A stretch of 38,456 nucleotides of DNA from the IMG/VR virus record IMGVR_UViG_3300045988_124250. One strand, given 5' to 3'. Position 1 is the first letter of the stretch, and each line of letters begins with the position of its first letter. Origin of the DNA: a virus. This document shows positions 1,544 to 16,885 of this stretch, piece by piece. Position numbers and translations under genes: made by a program. The notes beneath the pieces are model-generated. The model searched no databases. It saw nothing but the letters and a program-made list of their open reading frames with translations, and was not told the origin of the DNA.

Positions 1544-1545
1544 TT

Positions 1546-2154: not shown

Positions 2155-2280
2155 AGATGCCTCCGTGCTGTTGGTGGGTTCCAGCTCCCTCAGATTGTTT
2201 ATAGTATAGCGCATTTCGGGACAAAATGCAATAGTCAATTTATACAAACTTTCGCCGGAAAAATTGTTGAAAATGTGTAT

Positions 2281-2350: not shown

Positions 2351-2377
2351 TAGTCAAATTAAATAAAAAAATTGCTC

Positions 2378-2719: not shown

Positions 2720-2772
2720 CACACTTTTTTCCTCGATTTCCGGGGAAAATGGGGGATTTCTCCCCCATTTTC

Positions 2773-3171
2773 TCAACTTTTCGGCTTGCGCTTCTGCACA
2801 AGCGTCAGTTCATAGGAATTTTCACCAACTGAAAACGCAATCTGTCTCTCTTTGTTGGTAATTTCCACATTTTCACAGGCATTTTCGCTGTTTTCGGTCA
2901 AAAATGTTGCCAATTCAGCGATAATAGCCGCTTTCGTGGGATTTGCCTTGCGCTCTCTCGTGGTGAATTTGTATGCGGTGGGGGTCTTGCGTGTGCCAGT
3001 CTTGGCGAATTTTTGAGCGATTTTGAGCTGTTCTTTCGACAGGTCAAAATCCTGTTTCTTGCCCTTGTCGATTTCTCGGTCAGAGTTCCACACGGCTTCC
3101 GCTTCATCGGCAGTCCAGCCCATTTTCGCCATAGCGTTTTTCAGCCATTCGGTTTTGGAAATGTCAGCCAT
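2773..3171 (-). CDS. hypothetical protein, paralog of 5319..5675
   Basis: Shares ...TPTAYKFTTRERKANPTK... with PTAYKFAPRERKANLTK in 5319..5675. TGA stop. Confidence 0.55.
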   Translation of the reverse strand: MADISKTEWLKNAMAKMGWTADEAEAVWNSDREIDKGKKQDFDLSKEQLKIAQKFAKTGTRKTPTAYKFTTRERKANPTKAAIIAELATFLTENSENACENVEITNKERQIAFSVGENSYELTLVQKRKPKS

Positions 3172-3232
3172 AAAACACCGCCTTTTCAGATTTTAGGGGA
3201 GAGAGGGGGAGAGGTTATCTCCCCCTCTTGTC

Positions 3233-3652
3233 TCACTTGGCGGTGAAATACGCCTTGCGCTTATCCTCGATACGCTCTGCCAGACCGTCAATGACCATCT
3301 GACGCACCAGAGAGGAAACCTTCTGATTGGACGCATCGGCGATAGCGGGGACAGACTTCATCAGAGCGGAGACGGTGTACTTCTCGCCCTTGTGGGCGTC
3401 CAGGAACGCCTTGATGTCAGCCTTGATACCCTCGTTTGCCAGCTGGGTGGCGGTGGGCTTCTTGTCCACGGTGTTCTTGCGGTCGAGCAGTTCCAGCTCG
3501 TGGTTCAGGAAGCCCGCCACATCAGCACCGGAAACCTTGACAGTGGCATCGCCCTTGGGAATGTCATAAGTGGCGTCCATATCCACCTTGGACAGAATGG
3601 CGGTGAAGTAGTCGCGCTTGGTCAGGCGCACAGAGGAAGTAGTGTTAGTCAT
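3233..3652 (-). CDS. hypothetical protein, paralog of 5729..6109
   Basis: C-terminus ...SNQKVSSLVRQMVIDGLAERIEDKRKAYF matches SNQKLSSLVRQMVLDKQVERVEDKRKAFF. Start MTNTTSS with the conserved AAAGGGTTGATACT-ATG initiation region. Confidence 0.6.
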   Translation of the reverse strand: MTNTTSSVRLTKRDYFTAILSKVDMDATYDIPKGDATVKVSGADVAGFLNHELELLDRKNTVDKKPTATQLANEGIKADIKAFLDAHKGEKYTVSALMKSVPAIADASNQKVSSLVRQMVIDGLAERIEDKRKAYFTAK

Positions 3653-3720
3653 AGTATCAACCCTTTCTGCGTTTTTAGGTGTCGCCCACCATATTGTTGT
3701 TTCCCTCTTGGAACATCTAT

Positions 3721-3749
3721 ATTCTAACACATATCCGAAGCCTTGTCAA
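3721..3749 (-). promoter_or_regulatory. sigma70-like promoter TTGACA-N17-TAGAAT
   Basis: Minus strand TTGACA at 3749-3744 and TAGAAT at 3726-3721, proximal to gene 3233..3652. Confidence 0.5.
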
Positions 3750-3916
3750 GACTTTTTTTCGGATTTGTGGAATTTTTTTAAGGTACACGCCCCGCCGGAA
3801 GGTCTTACCCTCTCCCTTGGAACAATTATATATTACCACACCCTTGGGCAAATTACAATAGTCAATACTCACAAAAAATGGGATTTTCAACATCTAAAAT
3901 TTGTGCAAAAAAACAC

Positions 3917-4011
3917 TTGACAAAATTTGTGCCGCGTGGTATAATGGAAATTTCGGGCGCCACGTTCGTGAGCGCCCGACCCATTATACCACATTTGAGC
4001 GCATTTGTCAA
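3917..4011. promoter_or_regulatory. 95 bp perfect-architecture A-element: convergent TTGACA-N17-TATAATGG promoters on both strands around a 7 bp GC hairpin
   Basis: Plus: TTGACA(3917)-17-TATAAT(3940)-GG-aaatttc-CGGGCGC-cacgttcgtga-GCGCCCG-accc-ATTATA(3983)-17-TGTCAA(4006). The whole unit is an extended inverted repeat. Confidence 0.65.
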
Positions 4012-4017
4012 TAGGCA

Positions 4018-4058
4018 AAATACACAAAAATAAACCAGCGTAGTTGGCTACTACGCTG
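4018..4058 (-). terminator. intrinsic terminator
   Basis: Minus strand hairpin AACCAGCGTAGT-agcc-AACTACGCTGGTT followed by TATTTTTGTGTATTTTG. Confidence 0.6.
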
Positions 4059-4384
4059 GTTCCCCTGTTGATGTTCGCCAGCCGTCCGGACAGCCAGCCC
4101 ACTTCTACACAGCAGACCCAAAACCGGGGCGCAAAGCCCATTATGGAGGGGTCTTTCTCGGCACGCGGTGAATGTGGTTAGAACTTCGTACCCAGTCCCA
4201 ATTTCTAACGAGAGGTTCAAGATGGCGGTTGAGAAGAAATTATTGAGTGGGACAAACACTCTATTAAACTCCATCTTGGCTGGGGCATAAATATAATCAA
4301 TCATTAAACTATCTAATCAAACAATGATTGACTACTAAGGTGGTCGATACAATCGCCATTTCATTTTTCTCACCTCACAATGTT

Positions 4385-4420
4385 AGTATAGCACAGGCGG
4401 AGCGGTTTGTCAAGAGTTTT
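4385..4420 (-). promoter_or_regulatory. sigma70-like promoter TTGACA-N17-TATACT flanked by CTCTTGACA inverted repeat
   Basis: Minus strand reads ctcTTGACAaaccgctccgcctgtgcTATACT. It heads a ~330 nt minus-strand transcript (4388 to 4060) with no credible ORF. Confidence 0.5.
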
Positions 4421-4422
4421 TT

Positions 4423-5103
4423 TCAAAATTCTAACTCGTCCTGAACGCCATAGCCAGAGAAATCGAGGATAACAGGAGAAATGCCAATGTATCCAATGTT
4501 TGAGCCGTGGAGGTCGTTTATGTGATACTTCTTGACGAACTCACAGAGGGCGATAACCTTGCGCTTACCGTAGAGGGAAACGGCGACTTTTGCCCACAAT
4601 CCATCGAGGTCGCGCCCATAGCCATTTTGGTCTGCCTTGCGGAACTGTCGCTCAATCTGATTAACTCGGCAGTCAGGAACAGTCTTTGCGATACGGACGA
4701 GACGCCCTTGCAGTCCGCCCTCTGCCCAGCAGATTTTATGAGCACTGTTAGTAATAATCTGTTGAGCAGTGAACGCAATCGCTTCACCATCACGAGGGGA
4801 GACAATGTAGCCAGCCAACATAGTGGCGGGGAAAAAATCGGCGAGGTTGGCGTCTACGGCTTTCTGATACACAGCCACTTCCCGCTCTGCGTCCCGCGTC
4901 TCCATAGACCATTTGAGAACATAGCCCAATTCAGGGAACACCAGACATTCCTTGGTCGCACCGTTGCTGGTGACTATCTTGACATTAGGATATTCGTTGT
5001 GAATAACGCGACACAAATCGTCAGCGCACTTGACCAGTCTCGGCTTTTCAGATACCGCCTGCTGAATGGTCAGGATAAAATCCTGAACTCTCGGAAACTC
5101 CAT
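4423..5103 (-). CDS. hypothetical early protein (226 aa)
   Basis: AAGGAG SD 8 nt before the ATG at 5103. TGA stop. No motif recognised. Confidence 0.6.
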   Translation of the reverse strand: MEFPRVQDFILTIQQAVSEKPRLVKCADDLCRVIHNEYPNVKIVTSNGATKECLVFPELGYVLKWSMETRDAEREVAVYQKAVDANLADFFPATMLAGYIVSPRDGEAIAFTAQQIITNSAHKICWAEGGLQGRLVRIAKTVPDCRVNQIERQFRKADQNGYGRDLDGLWAKVAVSLYGKRKVIALCEFVKKYHINDLHGSNIGYIGISPVILDFSGYGVQDELEF

Positions 5104-5179
5104 CGTTCATCGCTCCTTTCAGTATCATCATTATAACACATTACAGGAGAATTACAATAGGTAAAATGCACAAAATTTT

Positions 5180-5276
5180 GCGGAAAAAATTTCTGAAATT
5201 GTATAATGTGCCGAAAACCGGGTGCCAGGACCGTAAGCGCCCGGCCGATTATACCACACGCGCTCTGATTTGTCAA
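5180..5276. promoter_or_regulatory. A-element copy
   Basis: TATAAT(5202)...CCGGGTGCC-aggaccgtaa-GCGCCCGG...ATTATA(5248)-17-TGTCAA(5271). The minus-strand promoter drives 4423..5103. Confidence 0.55.
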
Positions 5277-5318
5277 TAGGTAAAAATGCATAAAAAAAAT
5301 GAGGGAGATTTCTCTCCC

Positions 5319-5675
5319 TCACTTGCGCGGACACGACAGCACAACCTTGTATTTTGTTCCATCAAGCGTGAATAAAAATTCGCGCTCCGCGTTGCTCATG
5401 TTCAGGTCAGTCGCGCCGTATGTGGTCAGTGTCTCGGTCAGCAAGGTGATAATGCCCTGCTTCGTGAGATTAGCCTTTCTTTCTCTTGGTGCGAACTTGT
5501 ATGCGGTCGGCTGGCGTCCTACTCCACGCGCTTTCTTGCTTGCCTTTTCCTGTTCCTCGGTCAGCGGAAACGGATTGCCGCCCTTGTCGATAATAGCATC
5601 TTGGACAATAATATCCTTGGCTTCGGCTTCGGTGCAATCCAGCTTTCGCATAAGGTCGGCAATACGCTCATTCAT
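5319..5675 (-). CDS. hypothetical protein, paralog of 2773..3171
   Basis: Start MNERIADL with an AAGGAG SD. TGA stop. Confidence 0.55.
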   Translation of the reverse strand: MNERIADLMRKLDCTEAEAKDIIVQDAIIDKGGNPFPLTEEQEKASKKARGVGRQPTAYKFAPRERKANLTKQGIITLLTETLTTYGATDLNMSNAEREFLFTLDGTKYKVVLSCPRK

Positions 5676-5728
5676 GCGCTTACTCCTTTCGGGGATAGGG
5701 TGGGGATTTCTCCCCACCCTTGGGCGGT

Positions 5729-6109
5729 TTACTCGCTCACCTTGCGGAAGAACGCCTTGCGCTTATCCTCCACGCGCTCCACCTGCTTGTCCAGCACCAT
5801 CTGCCGAACGAGGGAGGACAGCTTCTGATTGCTCATGTCCTTGCAGACGGGGAACTCTTTGAGCATCTCGCTGATGGAATACAGGCGGTCGCGCTCCATA
5901 GCGGACAGGACAGTGGTCTTGATGACCTCATTCTCCTGCTGGGTCTTGGTGGGCTTCTTGTCCACGGTGTTCTTGCGGTCGAGCAGGTCGATTTCGTGGG
6001 TGATGAACTCCACCAGCTTGGGGTCAGCCTTAACCTCGGACAGTTTCAGCAGGGCGGTGAAATTGTCGCGCTTGGTGGGCTTGCGGGTGGTGGTGTTAGT
6101 GTTAGCCAT
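5729..6109 (-). CDS. hypothetical protein, paralog of 3233..3652
   Basis: Start MANTNTTT with the AAAGGAATTGATACT-ATG initiation region. TAA stop. Confidence 0.6.
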   Translation of the reverse strand: MANTNTTTRKPTKRDNFTALLKLSEVKADPKLVEFITHEIDLLDRKNTVDKKPTKTQQENEVIKTTVLSAMERDRLYSISEMLKEFPVCKDMSNQKLSSLVRQMVLDKQVERVEDKRKAFFRKVSE

Positions 6110-6149
6110 AGTATCAATTCCTTTCTCCATTTGGTTTTGAGGGCTTTGC

Positions 6150-6750
6150 CCTCCTGACATTATCTATTATAACAGCTTGCGCTGGGATTGTCAAGAGTTT
6201 TTTTCAAAATTCTTGATTTTTTTTGATAGTGCCAACAGGGGAACGCTCCACAAGTATTCACAACGACTTACTGCCCCGACCTGACGGATAAAGTCTTGCC
6301 GTGTTATTGCGTCGCAGTCCGGTTAGAGGTTCCGGTCTGTCCCTTGCTCACATCATGCTCATTTTCCGTTCAACGTATGGCCTTACCGCGCTGGTGTAGG
6401 GCCTACTTCCTTTACTTTCGCACGGTTCGCGACCCGCGGATTTCTTGGGTGGGGCTGTTCCCCTCTTGACATTATCAATTATAACACAGGTGCTGGGGAT
6501 TGTCAAGAGGTTTTTTGAAATTTTTTCAAATTTCTGAAACCTGTCTACATAGGTGACACATTAGACGCATCTGCCGTGCCATTCCCCTCTTGACATTATC
6601 CATTATAGCACAGGTGCTTGGGATTGTCAAGAGGGAAAATGCGGGTCAGTTACCGAGTTATCACACCCGCCAGCGTGGCTCTTGCGAGGCGACTTGCTGT
6701 TCCCTCTTGACATTATGTAGTATAACACAGGTAGGCATGGATTACAATAG
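6150..6750 (-). repeat. array of four tandem ~50 bp promoter repeats (CTCTTGACA-N29-TGTCAAGAG inverted-repeat units) with ORF-free spacers
   Basis: Units lie at ~6150-6200, 6455-6512, 6585-6640 and 6700-6750. Each reads on the minus strand as ctcTTGACA-atccc(a/c)agcacctgtg(t/c)-TATAAT; the last copy is degenerate. No ORF of 60 aa or more on either strand between 6160 and 6945. Confidence 0.6.
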
Positions 6751-6805
6751 GTAAACTATACAAGTTTCGGGAAAAATAAATAAAAAAATTTGTGCAAAAA
6801 AACTC

Positions 6806-6900
6806 TTGACAAAATTGCTGACGGGGTGTATAATGGTGAATTCCGGCCGAGACGCGCGAAATCGGCCGGCCATTATACCACACCCAGGCGCATTTGTCAA
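6806..6900. promoter_or_regulatory. A-element copy with a different hairpin sequence but the same architecture
   Basis: TTGACA(6806)-17-TATAAT(6829)-GG-...CCGGCCGA-gacgcgcgaaa-TCGGCCGG...ATTATA(6872)-17-TGTCAA(6895). The stem sequence differs from A3, so the stem-loop is maintained as structure rather than as primary sequence. Confidence 0.6.
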
Positions 6901-6945
6901 TAGGTAAAAATGCATAAAAAATGAGGGGAAAATCCCCTCATTTTT

Positions 6946-7479
6946 TTAGTCTATCTGACAAGCGAGAAATGCGTCCCGCTTTTCGTTCAGGTTTGCGATT
7001 TCGCCCGCCAGCGCGTCAGCCCTCATAGCCAACAGACGCCCATAGCCCTTGCGCCAGTTCAGCATACCAGCGGGATTGACCGTGTAAATAAGCTTCTCCT
7101 TTTCCACGGTCTTGGTGTCCTTGCGCTCAACGCGGAAGTCCTGACCATTCAGAGCCAGCAGAGCGGACTGTGCCACTTCCGGCAAACGCATCCAGTTGTA
7201 CTCGGTCATCAGGGCGTTGCCATTCTTGTCAATCATCCAGCTTTCCGCGTCCCACGGGTCGAGCTTGATTTCCTTGGTGGTCTGTTCGGTGCGTACCACC
7301 TTAATGATACCCTCGTCCCGCAGGAACGACAGGGAATTGTAGGTGTACCGCCGGTAGTCGTGCTTTGCTTTGGAGAAGTCCTCGGAAGTGAACTCCTTGT
7401 TTCCGAACAGGTCTACCAGCCATTTGTAGGTCTTGACCGTGCGGTTGAAATTTCTGAGGTTAGCATAGCGAGCTTTCAT
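6946..7479 (-). CDS. hypothetical early protein
   Basis: Start MKARYANLRNF with a GAAAAGGAG SD. TAA stop. Confidence 0.55.
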   Translation of the reverse strand: MKARYANLRNFNRTVKTYKWLVDLFGNKEFTSEDFSKAKHDYRRYTYNSLSFLRDEGIIKVVRTEQTTKEIKLDPWDAESWMIDKNGNALMTEYNWMRLPEVAQSALLALNGQDFRVERKDTKTVEKEKLIYTVNPAGMLNWRKGYGRLLAMRADALAGEIANLNEKRDAFLACQID

Positions 7480-7592
7480 AGTTTTTTCTCCTTTTCTATT
7501 GGTGGGGCTTACCATCGTTTCCCCTACCTTGAATTTGTAATGTTATTATAGCATGGAATGGGGGCGTTGTCAACCCCCATTCCAAACTTTTT

Positions 7593-7808
7593 TTACGGGG
7601 TGTCGTGCTTGCGGTATTCAGTCAGGTCAGGGTCGCCAATCCATTCGGAAAAATCAACCCAATAGTCGAACACATGGAGAATTTCGATTTCATCAGGTTC
7701 AAACACCCCGCCACAACAGGCGCAGATTACAAAACCGTTTTCAAGCTGAATACCAGCTTGAACACCATCGGAATGGTCGCCCTTAAAAAGCACTTGCTTA
7801 ATAGGCAT
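7593..7808 (-). CDS. small Cys-containing protein (71 aa)
   Basis: AAGGAGG SD. Contains ICACCGGVFEP. Confidence 0.5.
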   Translation of the reverse strand: MPIKQVLFKGDHSDGVQAGIQLENGFVICACCGGVFEPDEIEILHVFDYWVDFSEWIGDPDLTEYRKHDTP

Positions 7809-7875
7809 TTCGCTTACCTCCTTGTCTTAGTATAGCCATTATACCACATGAGAAAGGGGCTGTCAAGCCCCAATC

Positions 7876-8532
7876 TCAAAACTTGGGAAAACATTTTACC
7901 TCAAAGGGCGCGTCCCATGCGTGGACATTCTTGGTGTATCGCTTGTGCATCTTCTGACAGGCAAGGAAAATTTCCATTTCCTGCATAGCGTCAGACAGGG
8001 CGGTGTGTTCTTCCTCAAAGTCAGGATTGCCGTGGAGATAACCATACACCGCTTCGACAGAGGTTGCACAGGTCTTGCCATTCTTGGAACGCTTGCCATG
8101 TTCTCGGCAGTATTCCGCGTAGGATTTCTTGTGGGTGATAGTTTCCAGTGCCATGAGATACAGGTCGATGAACTCGAAAGTGTCCAGCAGGTCGCGGAAA
8201 CAGGTCTTGCAGAAGTCAAAACCGGAATTGTACGCCATCACATAGCGAACGCCGTAATGGTCGCACAGGTTTTTGATTACCTCATAGGCTTCGCGCTCCG
8301 TGGCGATAGCGGAGATTTCGCCAGCTTTGAGCCGTTCGGCATACTTGGGAAAATTCTTCTTGGCATAGCCATCGGTGGCGATTTCGTCATAATGCTCCAT
8401 CACCAGCAGGGAAGTGGTGGCAAGGATTTCGCCCTTGCGGTCGTGGATAATCGCGCCCACATTATACATTCCCGTGGGGTGAGCCGCGCCGCCTACCGTT
8501 TCAGTGTCCAGCGTGCAGTAGATATTTTTCAT
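7876..8532 (-). CDS. DEDDy-type 3'-5' exonuclease (DnaQ-like)
   Basis: Exo I LDTETVG, Exo II MAYNSGFDF and Exo III YLHGNPDFEEEHTALSDA motifs. AAAGGAG SD. TGA stop. Confidence 0.7.
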   Translation of the reverse strand: MKNIYCTLDTETVGGAAHPTGMYNVGAIIHDRKGEILATTSLLVMEHYDEIATDGYAKKNFPKYAERLKAGEISAIATEREAYEVIKNLCDHYGVRYVMAYNSGFDFCKTCFRDLLDTFEFIDLYLMALETITHKKSYAEYCREHGKRSKNGKTCATSVEAVYGYLHGNPDFEEEHTALSDAMQEMEIFLACQKMHKRYTKNVHAWDAPFEVKCFPKF

Positions 8533-8645
8533 TGTTCATTCTCCTTTTCTCTTGGTTGGGCTTACCATCGTGTCCCATACCTTAATTACATTACATATTA
8601 TAGCAAATAGGGGCGAGATTGTCAACCCCTATTTGCTATTTTTTT

Positions 8646-9092
8646 TTACAGGTTTCGCAGGATTTCCATAAGCAGGTCGGCATTATATGCCATATTGTGG
8701 GTGTTTGCCGTCCACTCGTTGAGATTGCGCTGTTCATCATCGAACAGAATAGACGCGGGGCAGGTGGCGCAGGTGGATTTGGGGACGCCATAGGGGACAA
8801 TATGGATTTCGTCCCACTGAACGCTGGGGAGATGCTTTGCCAGCCAGTCGCGCTTGACCTCGGCAACCTCGGCATTGAACTTATCCGTTCCGCTCTTGGA
8901 CAGCCAGCTGATGATGCCGATATTGTAGCCCCGCGCCTGTAAGCGGTTCAGATAGCGGGCGAGGGTGGAGAGGTTCACAAGGGGCTTTGCCACACGATAT
9001 GGTGTGCTGTCCTGTGCTTCGAGGCACTCCAACCAGTTGGGGACGCCGTAAAAATCAATCACCGTCCCATCGAGATCGAGGTAAATAGTCAT
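8646..9092 (-). CDS. HAD-superfamily phosphatase, possibly a 5'(3')-deoxyribonucleotidase
   Basis: N-terminal YLDLDGTV (DxDGT) and later FDDEQRN (DD motif). GAAGGAG SD. TAA stop. Confidence 0.6.
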   Translation of the reverse strand: MTIYLDLDGTVIDFYGVPNWLECLEAQDSTPYRVAKPLVNLSTLARYLNRLQARGYNIGIISWLSKSGTDKFNAEVAEVKRDWLAKHLPSVQWDEIHIVPYGVPKSTCATCPASILFDDEQRNLNEWTANTHNMAYNADLLMEILRNL

Positions 9093-9156
9093 ACTTTTTG
9101 TCTCCTTCGTTTTATTGTATTTACATTATAACGCCTATTCTCCTATTTGTCAAGAG

Positions 9157-9900
9157 TTATTTTACAAATTCCCAAAATAATTTTTCACCCGTATCAGGGT
9201 CTACTCCCGCGCTTTTACGCTCTCCTTTCAAACATTTACTAATGTTGCTTTGTGGAACGCCATAGTATCGAGCCGCCGCTGATTGAGACTCAAATACACG
9301 ATTAGTAGTTAAACAAATTACTGCTTTACTATTAGCAATACTTCCAGCCTTTCGCCATTCATTTACTTGTGCTTGGTGCTCTTCTGGATGTTCTTGTTGC
9401 CATTTTTCTTTTGCCTGATTTAATCTTATTACTTGTTGTTTAACGAGTTCAGGATTTTCTTTTAATCGCTTATGACTTGCTTCTAACATTGGCTTAATAC
9501 ATTTTTCTTTGTATTCTTCTGGATGAGTATCACACCATTTCCGCAAATGTTCCCCATTTCGTTTATACATGGCTTGCGCTTCTTCTGGATGTTGTTCCAG
9601 CCATCTTTGACAACTGCGCCAGCCGTCTCCACCTGTGCCACCTTCCGCATTATTATAAAAATTATCATCATTTACTGCGTTGTATAATTGGATGTATTCT
9701 CGTTCTTTTGCGTCGGCTTCTTCTCTTGTTTCACAAAAACACAAAACACTTTTAGTAAAATTCTCCTTGCCATACTTGCTAATTGCTTTTAGTATAGTTG
9801 TTCCACTACCTAAATAGTTATCGTCTGGGCGTCCTTTGTGCTATCCAATGTATTGTTTGCCGTTAATTTTATTTGTTGTTATGTAAACGTAATAGTCCAT
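9157..9900 (-). mobile_element. freestanding GIY-YIG homing endonuclease gene (Seg/I-TevI-like) containing an in-frame TAG at 9841-9843
   Basis: MDYYVYITTNKINGKQYIG-(TAG)-HKGRPDDNYLGSG... followed by a C-terminal NUMOD-like AVICLTTNRVFESQSAAARYYGVPQSNISKCLKG. The gene is AT-rich (~35% GC) inside ~50% GC DNA and has its own TTGACA-N17-TATAAT promoter at 9936-9964. Confidence 0.6.
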
Positions 9901-10032
9901 TTTTAGACCATCCTTCCATCTATGTCATTGATATTATTATACAAAAAATTTTTAGAATTGTCAAATTTTCGTTGGTTATTTCGCACAAACTTTCGGGATG
10001 CGCACTTGGTCAAATTTGTTCAATTTACCTAT

Positions 10033-10126
10033 TGACAAAATTGCTGGCAGGGTGTATAATGGAAATTTCGAGCGCCAGGGCCGTGGGCGCTCGGCCGAGT
10101 ATAGCACAAATAGGGGCGTTTGTCAA
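10033..10126. promoter_or_regulatory. A-element copy
   Basis: TTGACA(10033)-16-TATAAT(10055)-GG-aaatttc-GAGCGCC-agggccgtg-GGCGCTC-...AGTATA-17-TGTCAA(10121). Confidence 0.55.
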
Positions 10127-10177
10127 TAGGTAAAATGAACAAAAAAAATCTCCCAAATTTGGGAGATTTTTCAATTA

Positions 10178-10384
10178 TTACTTCTTGACAGTGATGCTGA
10201 AAATAGAGCGTAGGAGTGCGATAATGAGCCAAATGACCAACGCCAGTTTCCACGAAAACACGATGGCGATAGAGCCGATGGACGCGATGCCAATCATAGG
10301 GAGAAGCCAGCAGAGAAGCCAGACCAGCCCAGCAGTAAACAGGAACGAAATGCCAAGGGCAATAACCATTATCAGAATAGTAAT
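10178..10384 (-). CDS. small two-TM membrane protein
   Basis: MITILIMVIALGISF... with an AGAGAGGTG SD. TAA stop. Confidence 0.45.
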   Translation of the reverse strand: MTILIMVIALGISFLFTAGLVWLLCWLLPMIGIASIGSIAIVFSWKLALVIWLIIALLRSIFSITVKK

Positions 10385-10388
10385 CATT

Positions 10389-10586
10389 TTATTCACCTCT
10401 CTTAAATACGATGGTTTTGTGTGTGGTAAAGGTTGCTCCACGAACAAGCGGGTCATTTGCCAGGTCATTTGCGATGAACGACAGAGTTTCGTTTTCGTCC
10501 TTGAACCACTCGCTATTAGTGAAGCGTTCGCCCCAAGTGGTTATGCCCCACCACTCAACATTGTAGTACACATCTTTGATTTCCAT
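10389..10586 (-). CDS. hypothetical small protein (65 aa)
   Basis: MEIKDVYYNVEWWG... with an AAGGAGG SD. Confidence 0.5.
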   Translation of the reverse strand: MEIKDVYYNVEWWGITTWGERFTNSEWFKDENETLSFIANDLANDPLVRGATFTTHKTIVFKRGE

Positions 10587-10599
10587 TGTCGCGCCCTCC

Positions 10600-10749
10600 T
10601 TAGTAGATTTGTTCGCCGTTATGGTAGCGTTCGTATCTCGCTTCAAGGAAGTCGAGAATGAACTCGAAGTCGTCCGCGTCCGCGGGGTCTACGAACGTCT
10701 TTTCAAGGATTTCGCCAGTGTGGTCATTGAAAACTTTAATCATTTCCAT
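10600..10749 (-). CDS. hypothetical small acidic protein (~49 aa)
   Basis: MEMIKVFNDH... with a GGGAGG SD. Confidence 0.4.
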   Translation of the reverse strand: MEMIKVFNDHTGEILEKTFVDPADADDFEFILDFLEARYERYHNGEQIY

Positions 10750-10815
10750 TTTGTTGTCCTCCCTTATTTGATGATACCATTCTAACACAGAGGGGCTGAT
10801 TTGTCAACCTCTATT

Positions 10816-11295
10816 TTACAGATTTTTGCTTTCTGCTACGAAATATTTTGCGCCATACTGCGCCACAATGTCCTTGACCTTTTTGCTCTCGGCTTGCGTG
10901 GCACAATAGAAATTGAATAACGTGTGTTTGTTGCTAATCTCAATGTATGAGTGGGGAATGTCTCGCAGGTCAAAATCAACAGCGGCACGATACTTTGTGG
11001 GGACAGTCATTTCAATCTTCCACAATTTTTCCTTGCGCGCCAACTCCTCCACCCATTTGACCGCCAGCACGCCGATGAAATTACAGGCGGCGGTAATGCC
11101 CATCTTTGCCAGCGTAGAAACGCCGTCAATGTTGGTCAGGATAATGACATAGGAATAGAAGCCATAGGTCAGCGCATTGATACCAGCGGCTACCCACTTA
11201 TTGCCTTTAACAGTCAAAATGGATTTGATGGTGGACAGCACCACATTCACAGCGGTACAGATAATGAATAGAATAATTGCGTTCATAGTCATCAA
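10816..11295 (-). CDS. membrane protein with 3 N-terminal TM helices plus a soluble domain
   Basis: 159 aa with a GGGGAGGA SD. No motif recognised. Confidence 0.55.
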   Translation of the reverse strand: MMTMNAIILFIICTAVNVVLSTIKSILTVKGNKWVAAGINALTYGFYSYVIILTNIDGVSTLAKMGITAACNFIGVLAVKWVEELARKEKLWKIEMTVPTKYRAAVDFDLRDIPHSYIEISNKHTLFNFYCATQAESKKVKDIVAQYGAKYFVAESKNL

Positions 11296-11492
11296 TCCTC
11301 CCCGAACATAGCTTCCGCCAACCAGTACATAGATGTGCGCAGGTGAGACTGGATTTCAAACAAATCATCACTCAAATTTTGAGCGGCTTGCTTGTCCTCG
11401 CTGTTGGACAGGTTTTTCTTTTCTGCGGCGATTTCGATTGACAGTTGCTCCAACTCATTAGCAACTTGTTTCAGCTTAGAGGGGATGTTCAT
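11292..11492 (-). CDS. hypothetical coiled-coil protein (66 aa)
   Basis: Start MNIPSKLKQ with the conserved AAAGGAATTGATACT-ATG region. TTGACA-N17-TATTAT promoter at 11524-11552. Confidence 0.5.
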   Translation of the reverse strand: MNIPSKLKQVANELEQLSIEIAAEKKNLSNSEDKQAAQNLSDDLFEIQSHLRTSMYWLAEAMFGED

Positions 11493-11638
11493 AGTATCAA
11501 TTCCTTTCTTAATTTCTATTATAATAATAACACATTTATTTGAAAATGTCAAGAAAAATTTTTGCCGTAGTTAAATTCTCACAGGATTAGTTTTTTGTTC
11601 CGTGTAGTTAGTCAGAACTAAACCTGACAAGAGGGGCG

Positions 11639-12010
11639 TTAATGCCCCTCCGTCAGTTTGTTATACATACTCCATAAGGTATCACAGGAATTGTTTGTGT
11701 TTTCAGCCATCCATACAATTTGTTCATCAGTCGGCAGGTATTTATCATCTTGAAAACCAAACCATCTATCACAGGATTGGTATGCCTTATACTCGTCCTC
11801 TGTCAGCTTGCCACGCAACCGCCAATCCCAGCGGATAGAACTTATCAGAGTATACGCGCATGCGCCCGCGATAGTCAGGGTCAGAATGGCGACAGCCGCA
11901 TACAGCACGAATGTGGATTTGAACATACCATACACCAGCAGGATAAAACCACACAGAATGAGGAAATTGCGCGCCCATTTTTTGAGCGTCAGTTTCTGAA
12001 AATCAGACAT
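11639..12010 (-). CDS. membrane protein (2 TM)
   Basis: AAGGAG SD. The C-terminal domain is paralogous to 12025..12201. Confidence 0.55.
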   Translation of the reverse strand: MSDFQKLTLKKWARNFLILCGFILLVYGMFKSTFVLYAAVAILTLTIAGACAYTLISSIRWDWRLRGKLTEDEYKAYQSCDRWFGFQDDKYLPTDEQIVWMAENTNNSCDTLWSMYNKLTEGH

Positions 12011-12024
12011 TGTTCTTACTCCTT

Positions 12025-12201
12025 TCAGTTTAGTCTGTCAAACAGATTCCACAGCGTTTCAGTGGAAATGGACGTTTCATCCATCATTTCGCGGATTTGC
12101 TCCTCGGTGGATAGGTATTTTTCATTTCGCCAGAGAATAGAGCGGATAATCGCCCACGCGCACCCGCCTACGGCGATTAGTGCCAATACAATATTAAACA
12201 C
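12025..12201 (-). CDS. small membrane protein, truncated paralog of 11639..12010 (GTG start)
   Basis: VFNIVLALIAVGGCAWAIIRSILWRNEKYLSTEEQIREMMDETSISTETLWNLFDRLN compared with ...LPTDEQIVWMAENTNNSCDTLWSMYNKL. AGGAG SD. Not present in the ORF track. Confidence 0.4.
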   Translation of the reverse strand: MFNIVLALIAVGGCAWAIIRSILWRNEKYLSTEEQIREMMDETSISTETLWNLFDRLN

Positions 12202-12412
12202 TTTCTCTACTCCTTAACATATTGTCAGTAAATTCATTAGAGAACTTCTCGGCAAAATCATCATCATAGGCGCGATTGGCGATTACCTCCATAACCGTCT
12301 CAATGCCGGACATAAAGTAGGGATTGCCATTGATGGCGTCATACCGCCCGTGGAACATAGGGCATTCACGCAGGTCTGCGAAAACCGCCTGATACGCTTG
12401 CTTTAAATCCAT
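12194..12412 (-). CDS. hypothetical protein (72 aa)
   Basis: AAGGAGG SD. Proximal TTGACT-N17-TACAAT promoter. Confidence 0.55.
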   Translation of the reverse strand: MDLKQAYQAVFADLRECPMFHGRYDAINGNPYFMSGIETVMEVIANRAYDDDFAEKFSNEFTDNMLRSRESV

Positions 12413-12518
12413 AATACATACCTCCTTGTTTCAGTATAGCCATTGTACTACATTACGGGATAGAAGTCAATCGTCAAAATGCACAAAATTGCGGCGAAAA
12501 ATTTGTGAAGTATACCTA

Positions 12519-12570
12519 TTGACAAAAATGCCGGGCGCCACATTCGTGAGCGCGCGGCCGAAAATGTCAA
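12519..12570. promoter_or_regulatory. truncated A-element (hairpin between TTGACA and TGTCAA, no -10 copies)
   Basis: TTGACAaaaatgCCGGGCGCCacattcgtgaGCGCGCGGccgaaaaTGTCAA. Confidence 0.4.
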
Positions 12571-12626
12571 GTGGAAAATTATACAAAAATTGGGCTGGAT
12601 TTTTGTTCATCCAGCCCAAATGATTT

Positions 12627-12875
12627 TTATTCCTTTCCAAAAATAAAATCCGGTTTGAAAATGTAGAGGAATGCTACGGCGTAATGAAAAATCGGAATGA
12701 TTGAGCCGGTGATAACGGTCAACCAGTTAGAGAACGGACTGCGCTTGCTTTCACCCCGGTTCTTGAATACTTCTTGCGCCTGTTCCTTGTTTTTCTTCAT
12801 AGTCGAAATGATGCTTGCGATACCCAGCCAGTAGAGAACAATACCAATGATGTAAATAATGAGAATGATTTTCAT
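12627..12875 (-). CDS. small membrane protein (82 aa)
   Basis: AAAGGAG SD. Two hydrophobic segments. Confidence 0.55.
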   Translation of the reverse strand: MKIILIIYIIGIVLYWLGIASIISTMKKNKEQAQEVFKNRGESKRSPFSNWLTVITGSIIPIFHYAVAFLYIFKPDFIFGKE

Positions 12876-12899
12876 AAGTGTATCTCCTTTTTATTTGAT

Positions 12900-13106
12900 T
12901 TACTTTCCCGATTTCGGAACGAAGCCACGGCAATACTGGCTTGCCCACGTCCAGTCTTTCATTCTCTTGGTGCATCGGCTCTCACACTGAGAGTTCAGCA
13001 CCTTACCGCAGTTATAGCCCCAGTATTGACAGTGATAACAGCAGACATTGCGGATTTCTAAATTGTAGCGGTTCGCCAGTTCCTCTCGAATTTCAAATGC
13101 GGTCAT
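12900..13106 (-). CDS. Cys-rich small protein (68 aa), possibly a zinc finger
   Basis: CCYHCQYWGYNCG...CESRC. AAGGAGG SD. Confidence 0.5.
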   Translation of the reverse strand: MTAFEIREELANRYNLEIRNVCCYHCQYWGYNCGKVLNSQCESRCTKRMKDWTWASQYCRGFVPKSGK

Positions 13107-13196
13107 TGTTTTTACCTCCTTGTTTCATTGTCTACATTATACCATACCTACTGGTTGTTGTCAATAAAAAAATGTGGAATTTCTCCCACATTTTTT

Positions 13197-13424
13197 TTAT
13201 TTACCGATTTCCACTTTTTCAGTGGGGGCAAGCATTTGAAGCACATTAGCCGTAAGCGCGACATCTACTCTGTCATAGGTATTCCCGCAAGTATCGCCCA
13301 CATAGTCGCAGTCATTATCGGCGATAACGTCATACAATTCATTCAGAATGTCATAGGCGTCGCGCAGGGTTTTCCGCTCTTTCTCTGTCATTTTGACATA
13401 AATGGGGGCTTTAATAACTTCCAT
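13197..13424 (-). CDS. hypothetical protein, tandem paralog of 13439..13669
   Basis: MEVIKAPIYVKMTEKERKTLRDAYDILNELYD..NDCDYVG. Confidence 0.55.
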   Translation of the reverse strand: MEVIKAPIYVKMTEKERKTLRDAYDILNELYDVIADNDCDYVGDTCGNTYDRVDVALTANVLQMLAPTEKVEIGK

Positions 13425-13438
13425 TTTGTTTTCCTCCC

Positions 13439-13669
13439 TCAATTACTAATTTCCAGTTTTTCAGCAGGTGCGAATACTCGGCAGATTTCAGCGGCTTGGC
13501 TGAGGTCAAACCGCCCATAGCCATCACCAGTCAACGGATTGCCCACATACTCGCAGTCATTCTCTTCGGCGGCGTTTACAAGGTCATTCAGAATGACATA
13601 AACCTCATGGAGTGAATTGCGCTCTTCATCACTCAACTTGACATAGATAGGGGACTCAATAAATTCCAT
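13439..13669 (-). CDS. hypothetical protein, tandem paralog of 13197..13424
   Basis: MEFIESPIYVKLSDEERNSLHEVYVILNDLVN..NDCEYVG. AAAGGAG SD. Confidence 0.55.
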   Translation of the reverse strand: MEFIESPIYVKLSDEERNSLHEVYVILNDLVNAAEENDCEYVGNPLTGDGYGRFDLSQAAEICRVFAPAEKLEISN

Positions 13670-13740
13670 TTTGGTATTCTCCTTTCTTTTGGTATTATCT
13701 ATTATAGCAGAAATGGGGCTTGTTGTCAAGCCCCAATTTT

Positions 13741-14064
13741 CTACTTTACCACATAAAATTCAGGGTGGCGTTCCTCATTCTTGCGGATGCGCTTGACCAA
13801 CTGCTGGGGTAGACGGTTCTTGCCAGCACTCTTGTATATAGCGACAGCCCGTTCAAAGGTTGCGGGGTATGCGGTGATGATGAAATTCTCATATAAGTCC
13901 AGCACGAGGATAATACCAGTTGAGAGCAAACGCAGGCGGGCGGTTTGGCGTTGGTCGATGACCTCAATCATCACGCGGTCAGAATATCCGAGGTATTCCT
14001 GTAAGAGGGCGAGCCGGTTAGCCCGCTCCTCTGTCAGATGGTTCGACATAGTGTAGTTTTCCAT
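13741..14064 (-). CDS. hypothetical protein (107 aa)
   Basis: Start MENYTMSNH, chosen to avoid overlap with the upstream gene. Weak SD. Confidence 0.45.
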   Translation of the reverse strand: MENYTMSNHLTEERANRLALLQEYLGYSDRVMIEVIDQRQTARLRLLSTGIILVLDLYENFIITAYPATFERAVAIYKSAGKNRLPQQLVKRIRKNEERHPEFYVVK

Positions 14065-14065
14065 A

Positions 14066-14242
14066 TTACCACCCCATATTGAACACGAAGCGCACCAGAC
14101 CGATACAGGCAACGCCATATAGGATAGAGCCAACGAGGAAGTGCCAGTCGTGCGTCTGACGATAGACCATATAGCCGCCGACACACTGAACGCCAGCGAA
14201 GCCAGCGAGGGCGAGGATTGCGAGGATTGCGATAGTAGCCAT
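14066..14242 (-). CDS. small membrane protein (58 aa)
   Basis: MATIAILAILALAGFAG... with an AAAGGAGG SD. Confidence 0.5.
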   Translation of the reverse strand: MATIAILAILALAGFAGVQCVGGYMVYRQTHDWHFLVGSILYGVACIGLVRFVFNMGW

Positions 14243-14358
14243 TTGAATGACCTCCTTTAATTGATGGTATAAGTATAGCACACCTACTGGGCGTTGTCAA
14301 CCGTCAAATTGCACAAATTTCGGGATAAAAAATTGTTGAAAAAAACAAACACAAAATG

Positions 14359-14455
14359 CTTGACAAATTGGCTGGGCTGTGGTATAATGGAATTTCCGCG
14401 CATCAGGGCCGTAGACGCGCGGCCAAAATTATACCATAAAAATGCTATTTTGTCA
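14359..14455. promoter_or_regulatory. A-element copy
   Basis: TTGACA(14359)-17-TATAAT(14382)-GG-aatttCCGCGCatcagggccgtagacGCGCGG...ATTATA(14427)-17-TGTCAA(14450). Confidence 0.55.
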
Positions 14456-14494
14456 ATAGTCAAAATACACAAAAAAAATGAGCCAAATTTTGGC

Positions 14495-14674
14495 TCATTT
14501 CAAAATCTTAAATTCAACCAGTTCGCCGTCTACCATCTTGTGCCAGTACAGTTTGCCATTGTAGCGGATAGCGCGCAAGCGGTAGTCGTGTCTGTCCCAC
14601 GTGGTATACATTTCATCAACCACATACTCGCCGTAGCGGATAGCGGCGGCTATAAAAGTTTTGCTGTAATTCAT
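14495..14674 (-). CDS. hypothetical small protein
   Basis: MNYSKTFIAAAIRYGEY... with a GAGGTG SD. Confidence 0.45.
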   Translation of the reverse strand: MNYSKTFIAAAIRYGEYVVDEMYTTWDRHDYRLRAIRYNGKLYWHKMVDGELVEFKILK

Positions 14675-14684
14675 TTGTCGCACC

Positions 14685-14906
14685 TCACATCCCGCGGACT
14701 GCGCCGCACTCGCTCATACCATTTTCATCAAAGCGAGCGATAGGTTCACCGTTCATCTCGCGGAGTTCAGCCCACGCTTCACCAAAGCCGCCATCAGCCA
14801 GCATCAGCCGCACCAGTTCACACGCTATTTCAAACTTATTCCACGCGGCTTCATCACCGCTCACGCGCACGACCTCGACATTATTGACTACTACACTGTA
14901 TTCCAT
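14685..14906 (-). CDS. hypothetical small protein
   Basis: MEYSVVVNNVEVVRV... with a GAGGGAGG SD. Confidence 0.5.
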   Translation of the reverse strand: MEYSVVVNNVEVVRVSGDEAAWNKFEIACELVRLMLADGGFGEAWAELREMNGEPIARFDENGMSECGAVRGM

Positions 14907-14989
14907 CTTGAATACCTCCCTCATTTGATAATACAATTATAGCACGCTTATTTGTGTTTGTCAATAGAAAAAATAAAAAAAAATCCAGG

Positions 14990-15262
14990 TCAAGCCTGGA
15001 TTTTTTCAACGGTGATGATATTGGAATTGTCCCAGGGGTAAGACACGGAAAACTGCTCATATAGGCCATATATAAACCGCGTCCAGCCGTTGGTACAGAA
15101 CTGTCTACGCCATTCCCGCTCCAAAGGGCGCAACTCCCACAGGATATACAGCTGTTCCTCGATAAGGTCGCAGAGACTGGTATCAACATCCCACTGGATG
15201 GTAGCAGTCTCGCTATGCTGTGCCTCGCTGTCGATGAACCGAACCTTGTACTCACGCGTCAT
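14990..15262 (-). CDS. hypothetical small protein
   Basis: MTREYKVRFIDSEAQ... with a GAGGAGG SD. Followed by the hairpin aatccaggcttgacctggatt plus a T-tract. Confidence 0.5.
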   Translation of the reverse strand: MTREYKVRFIDSEAQHSETATIQWDVDTSLCDLIEEQLYILWELRPLEREWRRQFCTNGWTRFIYGLYEQFSVSYPWDNSNIITVEKIQA

Positions 15263-15378
15263 AATGATGACCTCCTCTGTTTTATGTATACAGTATAGCA
15301 CAGGGGCGCGTAAATGTCAATAGTCAAAATGCACAAATTTCGGGATTTGGAATGTATGATTTTTGTTTGATTTGCCTA

Positions 15379-15474
15379 TTGATAAAATTGCTGGGACATG
15401 GTATAATGGTAAATTTCGCGCGCCAGGACCGTGGGCGCGCGACCGAGTATAACACAAATGGGGCAGAATGTCAA
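15379..15474. promoter_or_regulatory. A-element copy
   Basis: TTGATA(15379)-17-TATAAT(15402)-GG-taaatttCGCGCGCCaggaccgtgGGCGCGCG...AGTATA-17-TGTCAA(15469). Confidence 0.55.
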
Positions 15475-15552
15475 TAGGCAAAATCACCAAAATTTTCAAC
15501 CGAATTATGGGCATAATGCCATATAAAAAAAACAAGGGCTTTCGCCCTTGTC

Positions 15553-15744
15553 TTAGTAGCCCCGCCTTTCCAGTCTTTCCAGCCTATCGGCGAGGGAACG
15601 CGCCAGCAGAACTTTTTTCCATTTCATCAGCTCGGCTTTGTTGCCCTCGGTGTTCGCCCAGATGCCCCAGGTGATGCCCTCGTTGATGATTTCCGCTTTC
15701 TTCATACCCATCAGGTTTTCGAGATACTGTTCAAAATTTGTCAT
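15553..15744 (-). CDS. hypothetical small protein (63 aa)
   Basis: AGAGGAG SD. Terminator hairpin aagggcgaaagccctt lies downstream. Confidence 0.5.
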   Translation of the reverse strand: MTNFEQYLENLMGMKKAEIINEGITWGIWANTEGNKAELMKWKKVLLARSLADRLERLERRGY

Positions 15745-15854
15745 AGCGTTTAGCTCCTCTCTTTTGATGGTTTAATTATAGCACCTATTTCGGGATTTGT
15801 CAATACCTTTTTCAAAATTTTTTCAAAAAATAATAGGGCTTTCGCCCTATTATT

Positions 15855-16163
15855 TTAGCAGTAGGCAAGCGTCATAGTCGCCCATTTCAGCACGGAAATT
15901 TGATTACACGCTTTGCCGATTTCCATAGCTTCACGCTTTGTCGCCACGCGCTTGCTTTTGTCGATGTAATACACGCCCTCACTGAACCACACGCCACAGT
16001 TGCCGCCGTAGTCTCTCACCGCGTCAATGGCTTCTTGTGCGGTCTTACACTCGATGCCCTCAGTGGCAACCTGCCAACCGGATTTGTAGTTTACCTTTTT
16101 GCCCAGTTTGAGCGTCAGCCCGTCATTGTTGCCCAACTTGCGGATAGAACGAATGTTAATCAT
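15855..16163 (-). CDS. hypothetical protein (102 aa)
   Basis: AAAGGAG SD. Proximal TAGACA-N17-TATAAT promoter. Terminator hairpin atagggcgaaagccctat lies downstream. Confidence 0.55.
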   Translation of the reverse strand: MINIRSIRKLGNNDGLTLKLGKKVNYKSGWQVATEGIECKTAQEAIDAVRDYGGNCGVWFSEGVYYIDKSKRVATKREAMEIGKACNQISVLKWATMTLAYC

Positions 16164-16283
16164 AGTGTGTATCTCCTTTGTTGTTTTGTTGTATTCATTA
16201 TAACACGCTTATTTCATTTTGTCTATTGGCAGACTATACAAATCGGGATAGCGAATTTTGTGCGAAATTTTCGCATTTTTCTC

Positions 16284-16345
16284 TTGACAACTGGTGGACT
16301 GCTGTGGTATAATATTTCGGAGCGCCACGTGCCTAATGAGCGCGA
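16284..16345 (+). promoter_or_regulatory. plus-strand TTGACA-N18-TATAAT promoter facing antisense into 16394..16582, a diverged A-element
   Basis: TTGACA 16284-16289 and TATAAT 16308-16313, followed by a GC hairpin-like segment and the TTAAAATTTTAACAAT motif shared with the 17.3-18.0 kb region. Confidence 0.4.
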
Positions 16346-16393
16346 CGATGCTCGTTAAAATTTTAACAATCCAACAGTAAAAAAATAGGACGC

Positions 16394-16582
16394 TTACTCA
16401 GCGTCCCAGGTCAGGATTTCCTCTGCGGTCAAGCCGTAAGGAGCGATTGCCCTTGCCAGTCTCTGTTCAGCGTCAGCGGAGAAATTCGACTGATAGTAGT
16501 AGTCCATCAGATTACAAATGCCAGCCCAGTCATCAGCGGGGATTTCGTCGATGATGTTCTCGATTTCATAGATGTTCTTCAT
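16394..16582 (-). CDS. hypothetical small acidic protein (62 aa)
   Basis: GAGGTA SD. Terminator ggacgctgagtaagcgtcc plus T7 on the minus strand. Confidence 0.5.
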   Translation of the reverse strand: MKNIYEIENIIDEIPADDWAGICNLMDYYYQSNFSADAEQRLARAIAPYGLTAEEILTWDAE

Positions 16583-16651
16583 TTTGCGTACCTCATTTCT
16601 TAATTTCTGTATTTATTATAACACGCTTATTTGTGTTTGTCAATAGTTTTT

Positions 16652-16686
16652 TCAAAAAAAAATAGGGCTTGCGCCCTATTTTTTTA
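16652..16686 (-). terminator. intrinsic terminator (bidirectional: A8-hairpin-T7)
   Basis: atagggcttgcgccctat stem-loop flanked by an A-run and a T-run. It is followed on the minus strand by TTGACA-N17-TATAAT for 16394..16582. Confidence 0.7.
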
Positions 16687-16878: not shown

Positions 16879-16885
16879 TTCCTCC

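Follow-up and report, generated by a model that had tools for sequence, protein, structure and literature searches.

A mobile GIY-YIG homing endonuclease gene with an N-terminal amber codon in the early module of a TAG-recoded gut phage

Why would a gene that lies in the early module of a phage, where in-frame TAG codons are otherwise missing, carry a TAG in the middle of its catalytic motif? The question is raised by a free-standing GIY-YIG homing endonuclease gene in the 38,456-nucleotide stretch of viral DNA analysed here (IMG/VR record IMGVR_UViG_3300045988_124250; hereafter, the window), which represents 38 kb of a genome put at about 130-200 kb. The original prediction, made from the sequence alone, held that the gene is a mobile insertion that remains silent or truncated until TAG is read through, so that endonuclease expression is linked to a switch of the genetic code. 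The comparisons described below make it likely, in our judgment, that the locus is a mobile GIY-YIG cassette that spreads by intronless homing and in which an amber codon at position 20 ties endonuclease synthesis to the code switch. The single TAG probably blocks synthesis of the nuclease up to the point at which the code is changed, and this delay would have been selected for. The elements of the locus are listed here by window position.

9157..9900, minus strand: GIY-YIG homing endonuclease gene, free-standing, 247 codons read through one TAG
9841..9843, minus strand: in-frame amber codon 20, taken to be decoded as Gln; proposed translational gate
9908..9917, minus strand: Shine-Dalgarno region GGAAGGATGG, 7 nt upstream of the ATG (direct reading)
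9936..9964, minus strand: sigma-70-type promoter of the cassette, TTGACA-ATTCTAAAAATTTTTTG-TATAAT, 12/12 consensus match
9125..9153, minus strand: second consensus promoter, between the endonuclease and HAD genes (consensus search)
8646..9092, minus strand: NT5C-like HAD phosphatase gene, conserved partner and probable target
8970..9092, minus strand: codons 1-41 of the NT5C/HAD gene, present as a variant that accompanies the endonuclease gene
8970..9971, minus strand: whole mobile unit, about 1 kb, replacing about 200 bp in endonuclease-less sisters

Direct reading and translation place the endonuclease open reading frame (ORF) on the minus strand, from the ATG at 9900-9898 to the TAA at 9159-9157; it starts with MDYYVYITTNKINGKQYIG and, after the TAG, resumes as HKGRPDDNYLGSG. 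This TAG (9843-9841) is the only in-frame stop and is located, as originally read, exactly after YIG (YIG-TAG-HKG). It is no sequencing artefact because six other related assemblies carry the same codon at position 20 (L001, L002, L003, L004, L156 and L153; related genomes and contigs are designated by L numbers throughout). A protein search yielded 198 homologs with E ≤ 0.001; among the best 120 of these, nearly all are 244-265 amino acids long with 93-100% query coverage, and all have Gln at the TAG position (YIGQHKG), which is also invariant in an alignment of 39 sequences drawn from this set. The closest relatives, L001-L004 and L156, show 88-97% amino acid identity and carry the same TAG in their DNA, with no other lesion; the database translations of these relatives already read it as Gln. 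No further stops or frameshifts were found in 14 gene copies spanning 53-97% identity. For the part of the gene downstream of the TAG, the ratio of nonsynonymous to synonymous substitution rates (dN/dS) ranges over 0.08-0.17 among copies of the window clade (dS up to 0.47), and the whole-gene values between lineages are 0.05-0.28. Residues Y6, Y17, I18, G19, Q20, H21, G23 and D27, which flank the TAG on both sides, are invariant in one frame; therefore, the selected product is the read-through protein. In these alignments, the codon-20 TAG corresponds to Gln and, judged by its pattern of substitution, the gene is functional, with an intact frame under purifying selection.

The identification of the read-through protein (with Gln at the TAG) as a GIY-YIG homing endonuclease was borne out by domain, orthologous group and fold matches. 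Pfam models PF01541 (GIY-YIG; 34.3 bits, cut-off 22.6), PF19835 (SegE_GIY-YIG; 26.1 against a cut-off of 25) and, for residues 201-231, PF22083 (I-HmuI_NUMOD-like; 27.6 bits against 27) were matched, along with PHROG 314, 'homing endonuclease', at 1e-40. PDB, searched by sequence and by profile, gave only spurious matches, such as NDUFB9 and RecA, none of them informative, the linker included, so that fold comparison was needed. It was performed with the AlphaFold2 (AF2) model of database protein P0001, which is 97% identical to the window protein (predicted local distance difference test score, 92). The top Foldseek matches of this model were to the I-TevI catalytic domain (1MK0/1LN0; probability 1.00, target-normalised template modelling score 0.62-0.68), and its C-terminus matched I-HmuI (1U3E, probability 0.98) and the DNA-binding protein 8B6E. 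Thus, the C-terminal DNA-binding region that had been recognised by eye is recovered both by PF22083 and by the fold match to I-HmuI. From sequence and model, the gene is identified as encoding a GIY-YIG homing endonuclease with a C-terminal DNA-binding module and predicted cleavage activity. The protein divides into three parts.

9625..9900, minus strand: GIY-YIG catalytic domain, about amino acids 1-92 (AF2 model and Foldseek)
9331..9624, minus strand: helical linker with repeated W..HPEE motifs, about amino acids 93-190 (AF2 helices 93-190)
9160..9330, minus strand: C-terminal NUMOD-like/helix-turn-helix DNA-binding domain, about amino acids 191-247 (PF22083 and fold)

The TAG codon has to be viewed against the way in which this phage uses its code. 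In the 16 late genes, 67 in-frame TAGs were counted against 138 CAA/CAG codons, compared to 0 against 97 in the 29 early genes. The late genes form a plus-strand block from 20421 on, with 16 tightly packed ORFs that encode a phage sigma factor, TerL, portal and virion proteins. Where the window TerL has TAG at two invariant positions, the aligned residue is Gln (FYQR, GQT) in each of three phages with the standard code, Enterococcus phage H1, Geobacillus virus E3 and an Alicyclobacillus phage; on the strength of such alignments, the phage is taken to decode TAG as Gln in its late genes. The early module had been described as otherwise TAG-free, which holds for in-frame codons and not for termination, given that the early gene 13738-14184 ends in TAG. 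On the minus strand, this terminal TAG stands directly before the next promoter and is kept in five relatives; reading on past it would extend the protein by only four residues (KIGA), up to a TGA within the -35 box. The TAG at the end of this gene appears to be a true stop, suggesting that TAG still functions as a stop early in infection. Other early ORFs with in-frame TAGs were inspected and set aside: apart from this true stop, they are mostly spurious or have the TAG upstream of the real start. TerL is most similar to that of 134-142 kb Enterococcus phages (52% identity), with 44% identity to phAss-1, and the phage is a large Firmicutes-type gut phage related to Enterococcus phages H1/VRE9_4 and phAss-1; a megablast search of window positions 7000-12500 against GenBank phages gave no match.

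The composition of the endonuclease gene sets it apart from its surroundings. Its GC content is 37.4%, compared to 54% in the HAD gene (8646-9092) and 46% in the gene at 10178-10468 (z = -2.0 against the 29 early genes, with GC of 39-55%); GC at third codon positions (GC3) is 0.26 compared to 0.56 ± 0.10 in the early genes (z = -2.9); and the late/early codon log-likelihood is +0.24, compared to -1.16 to -0.07. All three measures put the gene outside the range of the 29 early genes, so that the distinct AT-rich composition claimed at the outset is real, the measured GC being slightly above the ~35% that was given. Likewise, the codon usage leans towards that of the late module, as had been proposed, but the degree of recoding does not: there is 1 TAG among the 15 Gln codons, whereas the fraction in late genes is 33% (p about 0.02). 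AT-rich codon usage is typical of this endonuclease family at any location, including the standard-code phage L243; being a family trait, it therefore need not mean adaptation to the late module.

The prediction of a mobile insertion, to be checked by looking in related phages for an empty site between the HAD and 10178 genes, was confirmed by three sisters (L085, L086 and L087; IMG/VR contigs of 129-197 kb) that are 90-95% identical to the window on both sides of this site and have, in place of the cassette, a 79-bp intergenic stretch with one consensus promoter. Homology in the flanks reaches window position 9972 and resumes at 9093 (L085) or at 8984-8974 (L086, L087). In a sliding comparison with these sisters, identity is 48-68% over the 180 bp from 9149 to 8970 and 93-100% elsewhere. 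The diverged tract comprises the HAD-proximal promoter and codons 1-41 of the HAD gene; among the HAD codons, 31 of the 41 at the 5' end differ from the endonuclease-less genomes, compared to 13 of the 107 in the remainder, and the variant 5' segment is common to endonuclease-carrying genomes. Because the diverged tract covers the 5' end of the HAD gene, the differing unit is about 1 kb (8970-9971). An insertion adjoined by such a tract is the pattern expected of intronless homing with co-conversion and/or a cleavage-immune allele (background in PMC2988022), and codons 1-41 of the HAD gene are likely, from this comparison, to be the co-converted or cleavage-immune target region. In L153 and L154, in which the upstream genes differ, homology to the cassette begins at window position 9968, so that the same left end and promoter position are found in three genomic contexts. 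In nine lineages, the endonuclease family has an NT5C/HAD gene directly beside it, on the downstream side in the window clade, L153, L154, L155, L236, L238 and L241, and on the upstream side in L239/L240 and L090; the NT5C/HAD gene is therefore the likely target. Presence or absence of the endonuclease is still polymorphic among related genomes. Two homologs are named by one source as group I intron-encoded endonucleases; this origin was ruled out for the window gene, which is intergenic and has its own promoter. The setting is intron-less, the empty-site genomes having an uninterrupted intergenic region at the endonuclease site, and an Rfam search gave no intron or other RNA family match anywhere in the window.

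The position of the TAG was compared across 14 copies of the endonuclease gene, with L090 examined separately. TAG occupies codon 20 in seven of the eight TAG-bearing lineages, namely, the window clade (including L001-L004 and L156), L153, L155, L238, L241, L239 and L095, whereas in the eighth, L154, codon 20 is CAA and the TAG stands at codon 16. The gene has no TAG in L236, L243, L005, L006 and L090. Synonymous sites are saturated between the TAG-bearing lineages (dS from 1.2 to beyond the range of the estimator), and at the conserved Gln sites 98, 109, 168, 169, 178 and 217, TAG is found in 2 of ~70 cells. In the four single-TAG lineages, the TAG is always within the first 20 codons. L241, L239 and L095 have 5-8 TAGs each, scattered as in late genes; in the multi-TAG copies, the other TAGs are mostly lineage-specific, with only 192 and 217 shared, by two lineages each. 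In L001, L155, L238 and L241, the endonuclease is the sole TAG-bearing gene among 15-26 called neighbours. L243 uses the standard code, considering that TAG ends 4 of its 11 genes, and its endonuclease homolog has CAA at codon 20. The proposed link to the code switch thus gains support at the level of sequence comparison: the N-terminal TAG is retained across synonymously saturated lineages and missing from the homolog in the standard-code relative. This pattern speaks for selection having kept one amber codon near the start of the gene as a putative gate.

Additional copies were sought in several ways. A metagenome scan found only one more close copy, L156. A contig pattern scan that required a CAR Gln codon, and accordingly was biased against TAG copies and unusable for TAG statistics, returned distant Firmicutes-type relatives only. 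The IMG/VR counts of 2 loci with YIG-TAG-HKG and 54 with YIG-CAR-HKG show only that TAG copies are a minority there. Unrelated GIY-YIG genes with a TAG right after YIG were observed in two AT-rich IMG/VR phage contigs, L011 (12202-13035; an otherwise intact ORF of 278 codons) and L035 (5-505). In L236, a separate AT-rich ORF of 252 amino acids (874-1632) has TAG at codons 27 and 122 and is the only TAG-bearing neighbour there; with its zinc-ribbon-like repeats and an EYDGEQH motif (EDxHD/PD-(D/E)XK-like), it is probably another mobile nuclease.

The promoter of the cassette consists of TTGACA at 9964-9959, a 17-nucleotide spacer and TATAAT at 9941-9936. Together with the 5' untranslated region motif ATAGATGGGAGGA, it is kept with the gene in L153, L154, L236 and L238. 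The second promoter, at 9125..9153, maintains expression of the HAD gene, which lies behind the insertion; in the empty-site genomes, that junction has just one promoter, with a spacer unlike either of the window promoters. The original prediction assigned the cassette promoter to the same class as the late-region promoters. The resemblance in an AT-rich spacer, common to the endonuclease promoter and two late-region promoters, is genuine, but the 25 perfect consensus promoters in the window are mainly early (23, against 2 in the late region). Moreover, AAAAATTTTTTG is common to the spacers of the endonuclease promoter and the promoter at 20367-20395; this 12-nt identity leaves a 'late promoter class' unproven, and the AT-rich promoter travels with the cassette elsewhere.

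Taken together with what is known of homing, these features suggest the following course of events. The cassette, which comprises promoter, ribosome-binding site (RBS) and the 247-codon ORF, sits immediately upstream of the NT5C-like HAD gene in an early module compatible with the standard code, and would be transcribed from its host-type consensus promoter like its early neighbours. Under standard decoding, ribosomes would stop at codon 20, yielding a 19-residue peptide in place of the nuclease. With TAG suppression in operation, Gln, an invariant residue of the catalytic domain, would be inserted and the full-length nuclease made; the source of suppression is presumably a phage suppressor tRNA-Gln encoded outside the window. 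The enzyme would then cleave sister genomes that lack the endonuclease, at a putative target within or close to the HAD 5' end, and repair would copy the cassette along with the diverged 5' HAD segment. The sigma-factor gene of the late block has a similar layout (a consensus promoter, a spacer sharing AAAAATTTTTTG and four TAGs), and therefore, both genes may be released together.

The strongest competitor of a selected gate is a neutral amber codon: the endonuclease would be functional and mobile, with the TAG being a synonymous Gln codon without a regulatory role that arose by a CAG to TAG transition in a phage already reading TAG as Gln and persists by mutational bias. We consider this explanation unlikely while still deserving of serious attention, and several observations that fit it weigh against the gate. 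Codon 20 is CAG, one transition away from TAG, in three of the five TAG-free relatives (L236, L005 and L006), and the other Gln sites are overwhelmingly CAA, with a route to TAG only via CAG or the lethal TAA, making codon 20 the most mutationally accessible site; furthermore, AT-biased mutation would disfavour reversion of TAG to CAG. The endonuclease of L236 does without TAG, while a neighbouring nuclease-like gene has two, and the gate is therefore not obligatory; and the three lineages with 5-8 TAGs display a late-gene-like scatter. Other points against the gated homing cassette are of a different kind. A tRNA search of the 38-kb window and 14 related loci found no suppressor or other tRNA, so that the decoding machinery and its timing are assumed from relatives; phAss-1 has three Sup-CTA tRNAs, with Gln as the predicted amino acid (PMC10607447). 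In L154, the endonuclease occurs together with an HAD 5' segment of the endonuclease-less type, which weakens the target assignment for HAD codons 1-41. Finally, the catalytic residues of GIY-YIG enzymes comprise the two Tyr of GIY and YIG, Arg (Arg27 in I-TevI), Glu and Asn, and the 39-sequence alignment accounts for four of these five, with Y6, Y17, E66 and N83 invariant. Against neutrality, in turn, stands the retention of the TAG at codon 20 in seven of eight lineages despite saturation, and its displacement to codon 16, not its loss, in L154. Apart from their one TAG, the ORFs of the four single-TAG lineages are depleted of this codon relative to the 33% late-gene rate (p = 0.008-0.06 each), although the lineages share ancestry and are not phylogenetically independent, so that these position statistics are indicative only. 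General tolerance of TAG near N-termini was ruled out because late genes show no N-terminal TAG bias (p = 0.17), and in the four early neighbourhoods where the endonuclease is the sole TAG-bearing gene, all other genes are TAG-free.

The remaining explanations are far less probable. There is but a slim chance that the relevant product is something other than the nuclease, either a DNA-binding-only protein made from a downstream start (for example, TTG at codon 53) or the 19-residue peptide. An ORF of 195 amino acids starting at TTG 9744 is indeed present in the ORF listing, and I-TevI also acts as a DNA-binding repressor (PMC2988022), but in TAG-bearing lineages, codons 1-19 and 21-52, with the tyrosines of GIY and YIG among them, show the same single-frame conservation as the remainder, and there is no evident RBS ahead of codon 53. 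A decaying pseudogene, in which a nonsense mutation inactivated an endonuclease that was no longer needed after fixation, would explain why translation table 11 breaks the ORF after 19 codons. Homing endonuclease genes commonly degenerate after fixation, and I-TevIII is reportedly defunct, being named so in the title of one paper. Nevertheless, decay, which would have undone the original prediction, is effectively refuted by the lack of a second lesion in any of the 14 copies, by the dN/dS values given above, by the persisting presence/absence polymorphism, and by TAG being a sense codon in this genome. Least probable of all, to the point of being negligible, is an assembly chimera in which AT-rich late-region or foreign DNA was mis-joined into a GC-richer contig: it would account for the sharp GC drop at 9100-9970, but the junctions are identical in independent assemblies from different samples (L001, L003, L004 and L156).

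The proposed gated cassette has clear counterparts in phage T4. Like SegA-G and I-TevI, the window protein combines the GIY-YIG catalytic fold with a C-terminal DNA-binding module; the gene is intergenic, lies beside a conserved gene, varies in presence among related phages and has flanking sequence that is likely co-converted; and there would be, as in T4, a translational block that limits synthesis to late infection. In T4, endonucleases are translated only late because the RBS of early transcripts is sequestered in an RNA hairpin (Edgell et al. 2010, PMC2988022), whereas in the window gene the block would be an in-frame amber that requires a code change. The similarity to I-TevI is confined to the level of the fold, with 24% sequence identity, and, unlike many seg genes, the window cassette brings its own consensus promoter. 

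Among recoded phages, the nearest precedent is the group I intron endonuclease of TGA-recoded Agate phages, which is located in an early gene and enriched in recoded codons; these codons were argued to prevent endonuclease production until late (Borges et al., bioRxiv 10.1101/2021.08.26.457843). TGA-containing intron ORFs have been reported in crAss-like phages as well (Yutin et al. 2021, PMC7886860), and block-wise dual coding has been described (Mgcod). The window gene resembles the Agate case in being an early-region homing endonuclease with recoded stops, with the same proposed outcome, no endonuclease until late. Ivanova 2014 is reportedly named, alongside Borges et al., for genes gated by recoded stops in alternatively coded phages. 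The differences are that the Agate and crAss-like examples are intron-encoded, involve TGA to Trp and, as evidence, statistical enrichment, whereas the window gene is free-standing and involves TAG to Gln; and that the window family has, unlike Agate, a single N-terminal candidate gate codon in several lineages, an empty site and a mosaic flank. The gating idea is already published by Borges et al.; the window case adds a free-standing TAG-to-Gln GIY-YIG example.

The phAss-1 phage (proposed Phassvirus) represents TAG-to-Gln gut phages (Babkin et al. 2023, PMC10607447) and resembles the window phage in that both are large (about 130-200 kb) gut phages with structural-gene TAGs aligning with Gln. 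The window phage differs in belonging to another genus-level lineage, with a TerL closer to those of Enterococcus phages. An amber-containing endonuclease cassette did not turn up in section 2.1 of the phAss-1 paper or in term searches of PMC10607447.

Recoding of stop codons as a timer of phage gene expression is so far a correlative idea, and the comparative evidence for the window case is unusually clean. We give about even chances to the broader proposition that the N-terminal amber is a selected, long-conserved translational timer and that, in this group of TAG-to-Gln phages, mobile nucleases are the sole early genes put under code-switch control. If this is true, the examples would be the GIY-YIG family in at least five lineages and the EDxHD-like nuclease in L236; selfish elements would exploit, or be tamed by, phage code switching; and the cassettes would be natural single-codon reporters of the timing of the code change during infection. 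A clean test is at hand: a one-codon swap should shift the timing of the nuclease and the efficiency of homing, and natural controls exist in the form of relatives with CAA or CAG at codon 20 and of sisters without the endonuclease gene. The locus is, in addition, a documented case of a homing polymorphism that is still live among uncultured gut phages, with insertion boundaries and a probable target, NT5C/HAD. For annotation, code-11 gene calling wrongly truncates such mobile genes in 'standard-code' early blocks.

Several further observations concern the rest of the window. The first gene of the late block (20367-21485) encodes the phage sigma factor (phrog_5767, 2e-53), contains TAG in frame four times and is preceded by a perfect host-type promoter; through this TAG-bearing sigma factor, late transcription itself may depend on the code switch. 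GC3 splits the genome in the same way as TAG does, with 0.37-0.81 in early genes (800-18500, minus strand) and 0.15-0.34 in late genes (20421-37094, plus strand), coinciding with the TAG-free/TAG-rich partition; this split in codon usage suggests two translation regimes, perhaps those of the host and phage tRNA pools. The minus-strand genes by the divergent junction (18590-20252) have 28-35% GC and are late-block-like, and two of them carry TAG, namely, an AbrB/MazE-like gene (18736-19053, codon 27) and 19353-19676 (codon 7); therefore, the boundary of composition and code is not exactly at the strand switch. Diverged paralogous segments with 74-81% identity (3245-3519 and 5747-6015; 13339-13437 and 13584-13682) indicate that early genes have been duplicated.

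An intergenic element of ~137 nt is repeated at window positions 2236-2372, 3897-4033, 6786-6922 and 10012-10148, the last copy being located just upstream of the endonuclease insertion, with partial copies at 14340-14510 and 15335-15528. It contains a perfect consensus promoter on the plus strand that opposes the early genes, the GC-rich hairpin GAGCGCC-N9-GGCGCTC and a promoter on the minus strand; many copies end up with a bidirectional terminator as well, and the element is also frequent in L085-L087. The element has no Rfam match and could encode a small antisense RNA of ~100 nt or be a conserved 5' leader of early transcripts. A palindromic motif, TTGTTAAATTTTTAACAATCTTGCT, is present in five copies with spacings of 28-447 bp in a gene-poor region (17350-18011) and could be an operator or origin-like array.

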